Virus record (IMG/VR): IMGVR_UViG_3300020042_010673 | Coordinates: 1-25,844 of that record | DNA from: a virus | Lineage: Duplodnaviria > Caudoviricetes | Direction: 5' to 3' (one strand) | Length of the DNA stretch: 25,844 nt | Shown here: piece after piece, positions 672 through 25,844 of the stretch | Numbering within the stretch: the stretch's first letter is position 1 | How the letters are laid out: every line of letters begins with the position of its first letter | The notes under the pieces: generated by a model | The model's database searches: none | What the model saw: only the letters and a program-made list of their open reading frames with translations | Told to the model about the DNA's origin: nothing | Made by a program: the position numbers and the translations under genes

Positions 672-1991
672 TCATACATCTTCTGAGGGTGGTGGTGCGT
701 TGTTAATCTCCCACTTGATTTCACCCCTGACCTTGCTGTGCCGGATACGCAGTGACTCAGTGAACATCCCTTGGCCATCCCGCATCCCAGCCCGGCCGCC
801 ACGCTTGCCCAGCTTGAAGATGAAGTGGGGCAGCTCTTGGTCTTCCCTACGCAGAATGGCTGTGCTTCTGAACCAATTTGCTAGCTCACTACTGCCGGTG
901 AAATCGTAGGTGGACTGCACATTGCCGTCAGCCTTCTTAGGGGGCTTATTCTGGTGGTGGACTGCGATTAGGGCACACCCTGTCCGCATCAGGCAGGGCT
1001 GAAGAATGTGACGCAGGAAGTGGCTGCAAAATTCTTGCTTGGACACATCCCCACCAGCAAATCCCAGCAGGGGGTCGCACACCAATAAATCTGCACTATG
1101 GGTCTTAACTAGGTCTTCAATCAGCTGGCCAAAAGCATCACCGGTCTTCACTGCTTCCCGGTAGATGAAGACATTTTCAAATAGCATCTGCCGTTCAGCT
1201 GCGGACAGGTGAAGGTCTTTCAGAATGTCCTGCCACTGCTCCCCTAAATCACCCCCATCATTTTCAGATTGCAGCAGGACAATCCGCAAGGGCTTAACCG
1301 GCTTGATGCCCCACAGGGCTTTGCCTAGCGACCAATTAACCAGCATTGATGTTACTAGGGTGGACTTCCCGCAGCCGGCCTGAGCTGAAAAGAGTAGGCT
1401 GCCACCCTTACACAGCCACCGGTTACCAATCAGGTTGTTAGGGTCATTGTGCCGGTCAAAGGCCATCAGGTCTTCTAAGGCCATCCGCTGTGTGGTTGTC
1501 TGGCCTGTGCCGGCTTCCAGCAGGGCTTTGGCTTGGGCTTGGAAGGAAGCTGCCAGCTCACCCGGCTTGAAAGCCCCTGATAGTGCCTTAGCGGTAATGT
1601 CCCGGGCTATGTAGATGAGCTGTCTGGCTTGGTGCTTCTCAGCTAGGATACCGATAGCCGGCTTGATGTTAGGGCTAGGGCTGAACAGGGTTGCCGTCAG
1701 CTCATTGATGTAGGCCACCCCACCGGCTTGGTCTAGGGCTAGGGTGCTGCGTAGGTGGTTGCACAGGGTCAGCTCATCCGGGGCAAGCCCTTCAGCAATC
1801 ATCTGCTGACAGGCTGTGTAGATGGTCTGGTGCTTTGGTTCAAAGAAGCTGGCCGGCTGAAGGTTCAGCTCTGTGCAGGTCTTCAGGATGCCGGCAGACT
1901 GCCCTGCATCCACTAGGATAGATGCAAGCACAGTCCGTTCAGCATCCAAGTCAGAAGGGGGCAGCTGACTTGGGGCTTTGTGTGTGGTCAT
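672..1991 (-). CDS. Replicative helicase: DnaB-like N-terminal domain fused to a RepA/AAA_25-type RecA-fold ATPase
   Basis: N-terminus PPSDLDAERTVLASIL...FFEPKHQTIY...AGGVAYINEL resembles DnaB_N; Walker A AQAGCGKS, LQSEND, Walker B LLVCDPL, VHHQNK and FTGSS motifs typical of RepA-like helicases. Confidence 0.85.
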   Translation of the reverse strand: MTTHKAPSQLPPSDLDAERTVLASILVDAGQSAGILKTCTELNLQPASFFEPKHQTIYTACQQMIAEGLAPDELTLCNHLRSTLALDQAGGVAYINELTATLFSPSPNIKPAIGILAEKHQARQLIYIARDITAKALSGAFKPGELAASFQAQAKALLEAGTGQTTTQRMALEDLMAFDRHNDPNNLIGNRWLCKGGSLLFSAQAGCGKSTLVTSMLVNWSLGKALWGIKPVKPLRIVLLQSENDGGDLGEQWQDILKDLHLSAAERQMLFENVFIYREAVKTGDAFGQLIEDLVKTHSADLLVCDPLLGFAGGDVSKQEFCSHFLRHILQPCLMRTGCALIAVHHQNKPPKKADGNVQSTYDFTGSSELANWFRSTAILRREDQELPHFIFKLGKRGGRAGMRDGQGMFTESLRIRHSKVRGEIKWEINNAPPPSEDV

Positions 1992-2047
1992 TGGGTCTTA
2001 GGTGGCCGGCCAAGCTGCCTTGGGGTGGCAGCCGGTCAACCTATGTT

Positions 2048-5214: not shown

Positions 5215-5233
5215 TGGTGTTAGGGGAAAGGTG

Positions 5234-5305
5234 AGCCACAGGCCGGACTTGAACCGGCAGCCACCTGTTTACAAAACAGGTGCACAACCATTGTGCTACT
5301 GTGGC
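5234..5305 (-). tRNA. tRNA-Thr(UGU), CCA not encoded
   Basis: Cloverleaf: acceptor GCCACAG/CTGTGGC, D stem GCAC/GTGC, anticodon arm CCTGT-TTTGTAA-ACAGG, T arm GCCGG-TTCAAGT-CCGGC, discriminator T followed by CAC. Confidence 0.93.
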
Positions 5306-7664: not shown

Positions 7665-7853
7665 TTACTTCCGTTTGCTGGTGAACAGGGAACACAGGCT
7701 GACCCCAAGGATGACCGGGATGAGGATAGTGAGGAAGAAAAGGGCAATGCCGTAGCAGCCCTGTTCATAGTCAGCCGGGGTAAGGGGCTTGTCATAGGAA
7801 GCCCGGTGGTTAGCCGGGGTGGTGGTGTGTGCTTTCATAGTGCGGATGGTCAT
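7665..7853 (-). CDS. Small early membrane protein
   Basis: One hydrophobic helix (GIALFFLTILIPVILGVSLCSLF) and a basic C-terminus; start may be the second Met. Confidence 0.7.
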   Translation of the reverse strand: MTIRTMKAHTTTPANHRASYDKPLTPADYEQGCYGIALFFLTILIPVILGVSLCSLFTSKRK

Positions 7854-8096
7854 AGGGAAATTACTTGGTCACCCGGTGGCCGTAGGTTTGATGTTCCAAA
7901 CGGCACTGCCATTCAAGGCTAGCTAGCATCTGGTTAACTACCTTCCGCTTCAGGGCATTGGGCTTCTGGCCAAGGCTGTTCAGCCAGAAGATAGCCCGGT
8001 GCTTGGTGGCAGGAAGCACCCCCGGCAGGGCAAGGGCTTCAGTGATGGTGTGGGTTTTCATAGGTTGGGTGGTCATAGGGAAATTACTTGGTCACC
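7847..8096. repeat. 27-bp perfect direct repeat at two consecutive gene junctions
   Basis: TGGTCATAGGGAAATTACTTGGTCACC at 7847-7873 and 8070-8096. Confidence 0.95.
7861..8076 (-). CDS. Small early hypothetical protein
   Basis: 71 aa, bounded by the 27-bp repeats; ends VTK*. Confidence 0.7.
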   Translation of the reverse strand: MTTQPMKTHTITEALALPGVLPATKHRAIFWLNSLGQKPNALKRKVVNQMLASLEWQCRLEHQTYGHRVTK

Positions 8097-8299
8097 GGGG
8101 CTACGCTGGAAAGGAATTTCTTAATGCCGGCCAGCGTGGACTCAGACCCGGACTGCTGGCCACCACCATTGTCAGTGGCAAAGCCGGGCTTAAGATTGAT
8201 GAAGTAAGTCTTACGGCCAAAGTCTGACTCAATAAGGATTTCAGAAACGGCAGGATTAGACTTAAGGATTTGCAGGGTAGTCATAGGGCGGGTGGTCAT
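8084..8299 (-). CDS. Small early hypothetical protein
   Basis: 71 aa, YFINLKPGF pattern; ends VTK*. Confidence 0.72.
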   Translation of the reverse strand: MTTRPMTTLQILKSNPAVSEILIESDFGRKTYFINLKPGFATDNGGGQQSGSESTLAGIKKFLSSVAPVTK

Positions 8300-8306
8300 A
8301 GGTGAT

Positions 8307-8335
8307 AAATTGGATGGTCAGGGCAGGGTTGTCAA
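8307..8335 (-). promoter_or_regulatory. Sigma70-type early promoter, likely leaderless transcript
   Basis: TTGACA-N17-CAATTT, then 7 nt to the ATG at 8299. Confidence 0.6.
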
Positions 8336-8590
8336 AGCGTTTTGATTGGCCGGCAGGGTTAGGCTTCAAGGCTAACAGCGTAAGTTAGGCTGTCCTGATG
8401 GTTGACCTTGGCAGAAGCTTTCCGGCTGGCAAACAGGGCAGACCCAATCTGGTTGCCGTCAGCATCCTTAATCTGGGTTATCCATAACCGGCTGGTGGCA
8501 TCCCACCAAGTTTCAATCCGGTGGCTGGCTGTGTTGTTTGTCATAGCTAGGTTGGCCTAGGAAGCGTTTTGATTGGCCGGCAGGGTTAGG
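8335..8590. repeat. 29-bp perfect direct repeat flanking one small gene
   Basis: AAGCGTTTTGATTGGCCGGCAGGGTTAGG at 8335-8363 and 8562-8590; partial AAGCGTTTT at 9138-9146. Confidence 0.95.
8359..8544 (-). CDS. Small early hypothetical protein
   Basis: 61 aa (WWDATSRLWITQIKDADGNQIG), bounded by the 29-bp repeats. Confidence 0.75.
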   Translation of the reverse strand: MTNNTASHRIETWWDATSRLWITQIKDADGNQIGSALFASRKASAKVNHQDSLTYAVSLEA

Positions 8591-9137
8591 ACTGCACCCG
8601 GGCTTCAATGTCATCCCACACAGCAGCGTTGGCTTTGTTCCTGCGACCGGTGGCAGAAGTAGCCTTGGCCACATAGCCGGCTTGCTTCCAAGACAAGGGG
8701 TAACGCACTACCTGTTCAGCAAGGGACTTGTGAAACTCACTGCCCTTGGCCATAAGGATAGCCACCACATCAGCAAAACGCTCAGTCCGTTCAGCAATCT
8801 TGGCATCTTCAGCATCCTTTAAAGCTTTGTATTCAGCAGCCCAAGCCTGACGCTTGGCATCCCGGGCTGCAATTTCCTCAGTGGTCTTCCGGTAGCGGAT
8901 GCTGTCAGCATCAACCCCAATCTTCTCAGCACAGTCACTTCCAATAAAACGCTTCCGGCCGTCTTCATCCCGGATGACAATGTGGTGGATGATGCCCATA
9001 CCACATTGGGAACAGCTGCCACAGCCTTCAGGCAAAGCACTGACAAGGTTGTTATAGGCTGCCGGGTTATGTTCAGCCAAGGAAGCTGAAGGGATGCTGA
9101 AGAAGCCAATGACCTGAGCGTTACGGATGGATTTCAT
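8586..9137 (-). CDS. Early protein with putative Zn-binding domain and coiled coil
   Basis: CSQCG...H...FIGSDC motif followed by an A/E/K/R-rich helix; first gene behind the early promoter. Confidence 0.8.
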   Translation of the reverse strand: MKSIRNAQVIGFFSIPSASLAEHNPAAYNNLVSALPEGCGSCSQCGMGIIHHIVIRDEDGRKRFIGSDCAEKIGVDADSIRYRKTTEEIAARDAKRQAWAAEYKALKDAEDAKIAERTERFADVVAILMAKGSEFHKSLAEQVVRYPLSWKQAGYVAKATSATGRRNKANAAVWDDIEARVQS

Positions 9138-9175
9138 AAGCGTTTTATCTGGGTGGTGTTTGGTGGAACATCAGC

Positions 9176-23852: not shown

Positions 23853-24107
23853 TTAGTCCTGCAAGTTATCCCAAGTCTGCCGGATTACTGTTGTCCGTTC
23901 CCCATAGACAGTAGGATTAAGGACAGACAGGGCAAAGGAAGTTTCTGCAAAACGCTCTTTAGCCGGCATTGTTACCTGCTTCCCTACCGAAGTCCCGCTG
24001 TCAGAATAATTGACAGTGACTAGGCCGGTTGTCAGCTCAGCCAATGCAGCATCCCGCATTGAAAGCAAAGTTGCTTCAGATAACCCTATGAAAATGCCGG
24101 AAGCCAT
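23853..24107 (-). CDS. gpW-like head completion protein
   Basis: 84 aa between terminase and portal; helix-hairpin (VNYSDSGTSV)-helix pattern. Confidence 0.6.
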   Translation of the reverse strand: MASGIFIGLSEATLLSMRDAALAELTTGLVTVNYSDSGTSVGKQVTMPAKERFAETSFALSVLNPTVYGERTTVIRQTWDNLQD

Positions 24108-24128
24108 TTAGGATGCAGTTTAAGTCAA
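24108..24128 (-). promoter_or_regulatory. Late-gene motif copy before gpW/portal
   Basis: TTGAC-TTAAAC-TGCAT-CC-TAA immediately followed by ATG. Confidence 0.65.
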
Positions 24129-24138
24129 TTAGGGTTCA

Positions 24139-24204
24139 CACCTTGGCCAGCCCCAAGCAACGCTTATGAAGACCCATCCTATTGCATCACTTCTGGCCAA
24201 GGTG
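24139..24204 (-). ncRNA. Candidate hairpin small RNA with antisense loop
   Basis: 12-bp perfect stem CACCTTGGCCAG/CTGGCCAAGGTG around a 42-nt loop; upstream TTGACA-N16-CACATT (24244-24217); loop complementary to the start of gene 8586..9137. Confidence 0.55.
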
Positions 24205-24240
24205 CTACTGCCGGCAAATGTGCCCCGGCTTGGCCGGCTG

Positions 24241-25844
24241 TCAACCGGCATCCGCTTCAGGCTTAGGGTCTGCCGTCACTGCCTCAGTAGCTTCCCGGCC
24301 AATGATGCCCCAACGCACTGCAAGGATTAGACCCATCAAGGCACAATCCCAAGCGTGGTTTCCCTGCGTCTTTCCGGCCGGCATAATCCAATGGGGCTTC
24401 CCTGTCCGGCTATCCTTCACCCGGACTTCTGCTGTCAGCTGCTGCACATACTCATCAGGCACATTCCGGGGGTAGCTGTGCAGCCTACGCTTCTGCAATC
24501 CCGCCAAGAAATCCTTGGTGGCAAGGTTGCTCCAAACAATCATTTCACATCTACGCTGCTGGCCGGGAATAAAAATCAATTGTTTGTCTGAATAGAAACG
24601 CTTGGTGGTTTTGCCCCCCACATCCTGCACAGTGAAGTCAGCCTGACCACTACCCCTTAAAGCCTTCCAGCCCCGGCTAGCACATTGGGCATAGACCTCT
24701 TGGGTCTGGTCACCACAGTCAACCCCACACAGGGCTTTGTGGACATTGTGGGTCTTGGCCAAGTCATCAAGCTGCTGCCAAGTCTCAATCTTCCCATACC
24801 ACATCAGCCGGCTGTGACCGGTCTTTGCCCAGCTACGCACTTCAGCCCATAGGTGTCCACGCTGCACATCCGCTGCCATTGTCCGGAAAGGTATAGACCC
24901 ATCAGGGATGTTTCCGCTGTTCACATCCACCACCCGGCCTTCAGGGGTCAGCTTGGCTTCCAAGTCCCAAGCATCCCCAAGAGAATAGTCACCGGCCGTA
25001 GCCTGTGCCACCATTTCACCGGAGTCTTCAGACCAAGGCTGTGCCAGACGCTTCTGCTTAAAGATGCGTCTAGGGGCATCATCACCATAAAGGTCATAGG
25101 CTTCTTTGCCCTTCAGGAGCTTCACAGCTTCCTTGCCAAAGCTGCTATTACATAGGCAATTCCAATGCAGCCCAACGCTGCCCCAGCTGCTAGCCTGTTG
25201 GGTAGGCTTAAAGCAAGCACCCCGGTCAATCCGGTTGGCTTCAGCTCTTACACCCGGGCTGTCCTTAAGCCGGGTCTGGCAGTTACAACATTCATAGGTA
25301 GTGCCGGCTTCAACCTTCTGGAAGTCCCACATCCCGCCCACCTTCGCATCTTCCGGAAAGCGGATGTAATCCCACAGCCAAGGCTGCACATAATTGCAAG
25401 ATGGACAGGCAAAGCACCACTGCCGTTTGTCTGTGCTGTCGTGCAAGGTGTGAAAGTCATCCCCAATAACCCCACCTTGTGAAGTGATGATTACCCTACC
25501 CATCCAGCTGAAGCTTTGGGTTCGTGCCATTGCTTCTGCAATGTGACCCTTTGGGATTAACCAAGCTTCATCAATGATGACTGTCCGCAAGCTCAGGCGT
25601 TGCAGGTTGTTTTCATTCCAAGCACCCCGGCAGTAAACTGTCACCCCATTGGCAAAGTCAGCCACTGTGCTTTTGTCGTTATCACCTTCAGCAAGCAAAC
25701 CCTGCACCACCGGTGTCTGCTTCCACAAAGGCCGGACATAACGTAGGAAGAAGTCTTTGGCTTCAGGGTCATTGGCCTGAAGTATCATAAAGGGGGCAGG
25801 GGCATTGACTATCTGCCAAATGGAATAAAGCCGGATGAACAATG
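24241..25844 (-). CDS. Terminase large subunit, lambda GpA family (5' end outside window)
   Basis: Walker B TVIIDEAW, Zn motifs CPSC and CCNC, nuclease motifs AADVQ, VDCG and NHAWDC. Confidence 0.93.
   Translation of the reverse strand, partial: LFIRLYSIWQIVNAPAPFMILQANDPEAKDFFLRYVRPLWKQTPVVQGLLAEGDNDKSTVADFANGVTVYCRGAWNENNLQRLSLRTVIIDEAWLIPKGHIAEAMARTQSFSWMGRVIITSQGGVIGDDFHTLHDSTDKRQWCFACPSCNYVQPWLWDYIRFPEDAKVGGMWDFQKVEAGTTYECCNCQTRLKDSPGVRAEANRIDRGACFKPTQQASSWGSVGLHWNCLCNSSFGKEAVKLLKGKEAYDLYGDDAPRRIFKQKRLAQPWSEDSGEMVAQATAGDYSLGDAWDLEAKLTPEGRVVDVNSGNIPDGSIPFRTMAADVQRGHLWAEVRSWAKTGHSRLMWYGKIETWQQLDDLAKTHNVHKALCGVDCGDQTQEVYAQCASRGWKALRGSGQADFTVQDVGGKTTKRFYSDKQLIFIPGQQRRCEMIVWSNLATKDFLAGLQKRRLHSYPRNVPDEYVQQLTAEVRVKDSRTGKPHWIMPAGKTQGNHAWDCALMGLILAVRWGIIGREATEAVTADPKPEADAG

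Follow-up and report, generated by a model that had tools for sequence, protein, structure and literature searches.

The C4 (immI) RNAs of phages P1 and P7 and the CI RNA of P4 are processed from the transcript that they control and are released by RNase P. Their architecture, in which separate exposed stretches pair with two leader sites, resembles that of the hairpin described here. Phage C4 RNA is described as controlling ant (PMC8201110). In contrast, the present hairpin has no C4-type match in Rfam, possesses its own promoter at the 5' end, lies 22 kb from its putative target instead of sharing a transcript with it, and is predicted to address a helicase leader, not an antirepressor or immunity leader. 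CopA and Inc RNA represent the antisense RNAs of plasmid copy control. Another, RNAII of pMV158, inhibits translation of the replication gene repB (PMC4485353). As in these plasmid systems, the predicted target here encodes a replication protein; but the plasmid RNAs are cis-encoded, fully complementary and short-lived, whereas the hairpin RNA is trans-encoded, carries two seeds of 7–9 nt and looks stable. Phage sRNAs with known targets are few. Among those tuning phage development are sar of P22 (PMC2629481), PreS of lambda and VpdS of VP882 (PMC12197685). Unlike the hairpin, sar is cis-encoded against ant, while PreS and VpdS both require Hfq and act on host mRNA or on Hfq itself. The words helicase and dnaB are absent from the latter review (PMC12197685), and the open-access literature yielded no sRNA for Verrucomicrobiota phages or against a phage's own helicase. 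A collection of over ten thousand candidate viral RNAs (PMC10690425) may include this hairpin motif without a target.

The DNA analysed here, termed the window, is an IMG/VR virus record of 25,844 bases and falls short of its closest near-complete relatives by approximately 2–3 kb; all of its recognised genes lie on the minus strand. These encode a DnaB-like helicase, exonuclease, Erf, resolvase, ligase, holin, tail, capsid and protease proteins, a lambda-type portal and the terminase; neither an integrase nor a repressor was recognised among the 40 window proteins scanned. PDB matches of the helicase to DnaB are confined to the N-terminal domain, and the gene at 8586..9137 gave no family or structure match. 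The gpW label given to the 84-aa gene by the initial annotation is sustained by position only, with no family match in Pfam, PHROGs or NCBIfam. The features under discussion are collected in Table 1.

Table 1. Positions of the predicted RNA, its candidate targets and the neighbouring elements in the window.
Feature	Position	Strand	Remarks
Terminase large subunit	24241..25842	-	5' neighbour of the hairpin; cut by the window end
Predicted sigma70-type promoter of the hairpin RNA	24217..24244	-	-35 TTGACA 24244-24239, -10 CACATT 24222-24217
Predicted 68-nt sRNA	24138..24205	-	closing stem P1, 3' GGGG bulge, weak G-U-rich stem P2, apical loop
Tip seed UGGGUCUU	24169..24176	-	complementary to helicase leader -8..-1
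Bulge seed CUUGGGG	24151..24157	-	complementary to helicase leader -34..-28
TTGAC-N6-TGCA motif ahead of the gpW-like gene	24114..24128	-	kept where the hairpin is lost
84-aa gene ahead of the portal, gpW-like by position	23853..24107	-	3' neighbour of the hairpin
Start region of the first early gene 8586..9137, possible secondary target	9125..9144	-	match of the initial annotation; not conserved
TTGAC-N4-TGCC motif	2026..2039	-	just ahead of the upstream target site; promoter-like, may set the 5' end of the leader
Target site CCCCAAG	2019..2025	-	helicase leader, upstream site
Target site AAGACCCA	1992..1999	-	adjoins the helicase AUG
DnaB-like replicative helicase	672..1991	-	Pfam PF00772 (DnaB N-terminal domain), PF13481 (AAA_25); phrog_19

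A perfect 12-bp stem (24139–24150/24193–24204) occupies the gap between the terminase and the gpW-like gene behind a promoter-like TTGACA-N16-CACATT, and both elements noted by the initial annotation check at their coordinates; the -35 box overlaps the terminase stop codon. The interior had been read as an open loop, but it folds into a second, G–U-rich stem with a four-nucleotide GGGG bulge and an apical loop, so that opening the 21-nt segment 24179–24159 costs about 9 kcal/mol by folding calculation. This inner part contains 66% G+U, compared with 48% on the sense strand. The RNA had also been regarded as a product of the late region; the promoter has host sigma70 geometry, and therefore late timing is not required. 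Rfam returned no match to the hairpin in the window (E up to 1; tRNA-Thr only), in 20 loci at the gathering level or in four loci with E up to 1. Contigs from one run marked as RNA, which are probably DNA, leave the hairpin uncovered. A small protein gene on the opposite strand (ATG at 24166, 54 aa here) was considered and rejected, its frame ending within about 12–20 codons or its ATG being absent in close relatives.

Related freshwater phages carry 62 distinct variants of the hairpin, 54–77 nt in length. The 202 loci with a gpW-like gene gave 64 distinct hairpins above threshold and five distinct gaps below it, and 62 of the 64 were retained on the requirement of a promoter or a strong stem. 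TTG[AC]C is situated 33–40 nt upstream of the hairpin in 56 of the 64 variants, and the promoter bases A(-11), the A at +23, and T(-7), the T at +27, are present in 50 and 52 of 57, respectively; this conserved -35/-10 spacing places the predicted transcription start at the first stem base (+1/+2). The late-gene strand folds more stably than its complement in all but one of the 64 variants, and compensatory changes affect 6 of 23 predicted stem pairs among seven close variants and 6 of 12 among nine others. A covariance model built from 22 close variants scored strongly only for the window in 43 sources and missed the distant clades. At least four scattered lineages in a quick terminase tree have lost the promoter and hairpin while keeping the head genes, as expected of an accessory gene. 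Judged from these sequences, the hairpin is a conserved predicted RNA gene with its own promoter, short imperfect seeds and a distant target, the criteria of a trans-encoded base-pairing sRNA, and represents a real, conserved and apparently undescribed family of predicted phage sRNAs. In one relative (L119), the terminase and the hairpin promoter are separated by some 480 nt of inserted DNA that contains an open frame, and the hairpin is intact.

It is very improbable that the hairpin functions purely in cis, stabilising the 5' end of the head operon or serving as its attenuator or terminator, or that the words it shares with distant leaders are DNA sites for a protein, with no pairing in trans. 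The stem does begin at the predicted +1/+2, directly ahead of the gpW-like gene and portal, and at least four T fall within the next 9 nt after the stem in 18 of 62 variants (a run of four T in 7 of 62). Against this, the head genes retain a motif of their own where the cassette is lost, and the clade-specific complementarity to a distant leader described below, located in unpaired bases and with spacings that differ between hairpin and leader, would be left unexplained.

That distant leader belongs to the operon of the DnaB-like helicase. In the window it reads CCCCAAG (2025–2019), 19 nt, AAGACCCA (1999–1992) and ATG, and the bulge CUUGGGG and the tip UGGGUCUU are exact, colinear complements of the two sites, a combination occurring once on the window's sense strand. 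The two-seed score of the window, defined below, is reached by 10 of 2000 shuffles. The hairpin, whose tip and 3' bulge are thus matched to two sites of the helicase leader, is probably transcribed, and its RNA probably binds this leader and represses translation of the helicase. TTGA[CA] is found in 20 of 31 helicase leaders, in most cases with the TTGAC motif 42–53 nt before the AUG; 13 of these 20 have a late-like box and six have sigma70 -10 geometry. Where TTGAC fits a sigma70 promoter (6 of 20), the upstream site would occur only in read-through transcripts, while 13 of 20 resemble the late TTGAC-N-TGCA motif, and transcripts may start directly after it. That motif, TTGAC-N5-7-TGCA, stands 2–19 nt before many late-gene starts (window 24128–24114, 21143, 19146 and 17398, minus strand) and at the same places in G001, G002, G008 and G013, with a shorter-spaced form ahead of the helicase leader; because this spacing matches neither sigma70 nor sigma54, the motif may mark a phage-specific late promoter.

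The helicase leader was noticed on inspection of the top matches, when several tests on these same genomes had already failed. The two-seed score sums up the two best colinear Watson–Crick runs of a hairpin against positions -45..+3 around the start of that phage's helicase gene. Cognate pairs reach 13.32, compared with 10.18±0.42 when partners are permuted between clades (p<=1e-4; 17 clades, 29 pairs), and the maximum of 10,000 permutations is 11.70. Strict first rank among the phage's own starts is attained by 13 of the 29 pairs, and 16 of them score above shuffled sequences (p<=0.05; combined Z 5.8). With the first gene of the operon as the start, the score rises to 13.60 and 14 of 29 pairs rank first; for seven pairs this start was picked by eye. 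The matched bases have a mean unpaired probability of 0.64, as against 0.31 for the rest of the inner region (32 pairs). Among nine genes tested by the same permutation, the helicase gives z 8.0, erf 3.6, terminase 2.1, portal 1.8 and the five others 1.0 or less; the exonuclease had no usable rows. The tip site abuts or overlaps the AUG in most clades, and other clades keep the same two-site geometry with different words: ACCTCCAAGCCAT in G042 and G045, ATCGACC with CCACAACC in G040, ATCCCACC with CCCCACA in G008, and TCCCACAA with ACAAAAC, at the operon's first gene, in G044. In G002 and G003, where a gene has been inserted ahead of the helicase, the two sites remain at the operon head.

A hold-out set consists of new contigs with helicase alignments that were fetched after scoring; six distant loci (helicase and gpW-like match, no hairpin above threshold) and one duplicate were left out of the count. 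In this set, 11 of 13 new distinct RNA–leader pairs rank first among their own starts (shuffle p 0.003–0.007), all 11 from one clade. Changes of the tip are matched by the leader (GGAAGAGA/TCTCTTCC, GGAAGAAG/CTTCTTCC and AGAAGAG/CTCTTCT), and so are changes of the bulge (GGCGUGGG/CCCACGCC and GGCGUGGAU/ATCCACGCC). Each of the three hold-out seed classes scores best with its own leaders (16.2, 16.7 and 16.0 vs 12.0–15.7). The remaining two pairs are weak: L583 ranks fifth of 11, and L592 ranks second with both seeds in reversed order, as they also are in G014. Elsewhere, the fit is poor for G010, G011, G016, G018, L429 and L431 whichever start rule is applied (shuffle p 0.15–0.87), and in G002 the tip has changed and the helicase leader has not followed. 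RNAcofold did not return the two-seed complex (-3.9 kcal/mol, with a rearranged fold), loop–loop contacts being outside its model.

The erf leader was tried as a second target and rejected: z 3.6 by permutation falls to Z 1.4 against shuffles, and the window holds no match. The bulge seed matches 7–11 nt in the erf leaders of G006, G041, G049, G050 and G052, which is not significant against shuffles. The interval between the ssb-like gene and the helicase is an insertion hot spot (G002, G003, G004, G005, G011 and L429; 207 aa, or 328–368 aa), and the 207-aa insert of G002 and G003 opens with the initial codons of the helicase and has captured the helicase leader.

The initial annotation had proposed a discrete trans-acting antisense sRNA that acts on an early-region start, and this idea is well supported, but at a different gene from the one it named. 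Its pairing of the loop (24179–24159) with 9144–9125, at the start of gene 8586..9137, stands as described (20 of 21 nt). With -31.1 kcal/mol, it is the loop's best compact duplex over 55 candidate starts, an energy reached by only 7 of 1000 dinucleotide shuffles; the 12-nt Watson–Crick run arises at a start in 6 of 1000 shuffles and anywhere on the sense strand in 75 of 1000. The net energy is -19.0 kcal/mol at this gene, compared with -9.0 for the tip alone at the helicase start, and gene 8586 has the best net energy among 45 A/C-rich starts in the window and 49 in G001. Nevertheless, the pairing is not kept across relatives, and the conserved, covarying target is the helicase operon leader. 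Gene 8586 has six relatives in IMG/VR. In G001, the sole relative with both the gene and the same seed region, the start reads AACGATT, an uncompensated mismatch (-26.0 vs -31.1 kcal/mol); G003 has a different gene-8586 leader (-21.0 with the window's loop), and the close hairpin variant L069 has lost the anti-AUG. A top compact duplex over a start codon occurs in one of 38 genomes, the window. The excess of AACGCTT (11 vs 1.9), which had been cited alongside, is a composition effect of the genome's CG-context bias, since Markov models of order 3–5 expect 9.9–12.1. Perfect matches to the 18-nt loop complement number eight in IMG/VR, comprising five hairpin copies and three in unrelated-looking DNA.

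It is quite improbable that silencing of gene 8586..9137, or of the immediate-early cluster, by pairing over a start codon is the main role of the RNA. An immediate-early gene has the best net energy in G000, G001 and G002 (45, 49 and 47 A/C-rich starts), the top target falls into the immediate-early cluster in 7 of 25 genomes (about 3.3 expected), and 9-nt matches stand at the first early leader in G016–G018 and G042. However, once the window's clade is set aside, p for the first early leader or cluster is 0.02–0.22, depending on the null; no enrichment at starts is seen across the family, and gene 8586 is uncommon, with uncompensated variation at its start. Scans of whole loops for duplexes and of k-mers for enrichment over every start of the same genome were negative, such scans overlooking two short seeds at a single leader, and a test of the loop as one tag for many targets was also negative. 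Anti-AUG content in 15 of 25 loop clusters is more than base composition predicts (6.3) but no more than dinucleotide shuffles give (12.6, p 0.18). Furthermore, TATGAAGACCC, the complement of the tip, is frequent at host starts (present in 63 of 137 family genomes; 22 of 40 sampled matches are gene starts), and so matches at starts come cheaply. Gene 8586 is a possible secondary target limited to one clade. In G016, G017 and G018, the first early transcript carries a 9-nt complement of the 3' bulge where its 5' end is predicted, and this clade, which fits the helicase leader poorly, may have switched its target.

A duplex that covers the bases next to the AUG, within the ribosome footprint, blocks initiation. 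For the helicase leader, host sigma70 polymerase would produce an RNA of 55–75 nt whose paired ends would confer stability, and its exposed tip and bulge would capture the leader without Hfq. The tip duplex over -8..-1 would then block loading of the 30S subunit on a leader that lacks a Shine–Dalgarno sequence. The RNA is thus likely to act without a chaperone, in trans, as an antisense repressor of helicase translation, and this pairing would probably reduce replication of the phage DNA. That the same two-site pairing has the opposite effect, with the helicase message activated or stabilised through an opened leader hairpin or a shielded 5' end, is distinctly unlikely. The window leader (-45..+15) folds over the upstream site at -13.9 kcal/mol; in 13 of 20 leaders that site follows directly behind a promoter-like motif, where pairing could protect the 5' end; and lambda PreS is reported as an sRNA supporting replication via host dnaN (PMC12197685). 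Activation is nevertheless hard to reconcile with a tip site lying inside the ribosome footprint in most clades, with the many A/C-rich leaders of little folding capacity, and with the dispensability of the RNA in four lineages.

Under repression of the helicase, the RNA might rise with time and genome copy number and so provide negative feedback or a timer on replication, perhaps timing the passage from replication to packaging, and it may exclude later-arriving phages with the same seeds. Unlikely, yet conceivable, is a lock-and-key replication incompatibility set by the two seeds, in which the stable RNA of a resident phage shuts off the helicase of any newcomer that shares its leader and also limits the resident's own copy number. 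If so, seed–leader pairs would diversify into exclusion groups, and plasmid-like copy control by a trans-encoded RNA would operate in phages without a recognised integrase or repressor. Repression of the helicase would constitute a post-transcriptional brake on replication in abundant uncultured freshwater phages and would show compact, specific pairing with leaders devoid of a Shine–Dalgarno sequence in hosts seemingly devoid of Hfq. Natural variation identifies the target and supplies ready-made compensatory mutants.

The hosts are probably Opitutales, as the terminase alignment against a genome collection indicates: five of nine matches fall in Verrucomicrobiota/Opitutae MAGs, all five in one small-genome family, and as co-binned contigs they assign the host indirectly. 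In five of five candidate host MAGs, whose genomes are incomplete, neither Hfq nor CsrA was found. GGAG/GAGG is rare in the leaders of both phage (32 of 507) and host (25 of 158), and some Verrucomicrobia are listed as scarce in Shine–Dalgarno sequences (PMC10783764). It is extremely improbable that the main role of the RNA is to act on host mRNAs or to titrate a host protein. The core GUCGUUG is shared by 9 of the 25 loop clusters (at most 5 in shuffles) and is not always a helicase seed, and for two clade seeds there are complementary host starts, many of them on signal-peptide genes. By contrast, a 19-nt match with at most two mismatches occurs in only 2 of 137 host-family genomes, at unrelated genes, CCAACAACGAC lies at a start in 2 of 30 sampled host matches, and neither mimicry of nor pairing with host 16S rRNA was found. 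In its wider form, (G)UCGUUG(U), the core appears in 9–10 of the 25 loop clusters, above the shuffle expectation.

The window shows a strong CG-context bias on both strands (GCGC 0, TCGA 2, ACGT 6, vs CCGG 638), which suggests avoidance of host restriction sites. A tRNA-Thr(UGU) is located at 5233–5305 on the minus strand, between a 69-aa gene and erf. Direct repeats accompany the starts of small early genes at 7819–8581 (58 nt spaced 223 nt apart and 36 nt spaced 227 nt apart), an arrangement typical of gene-cassette exchange.
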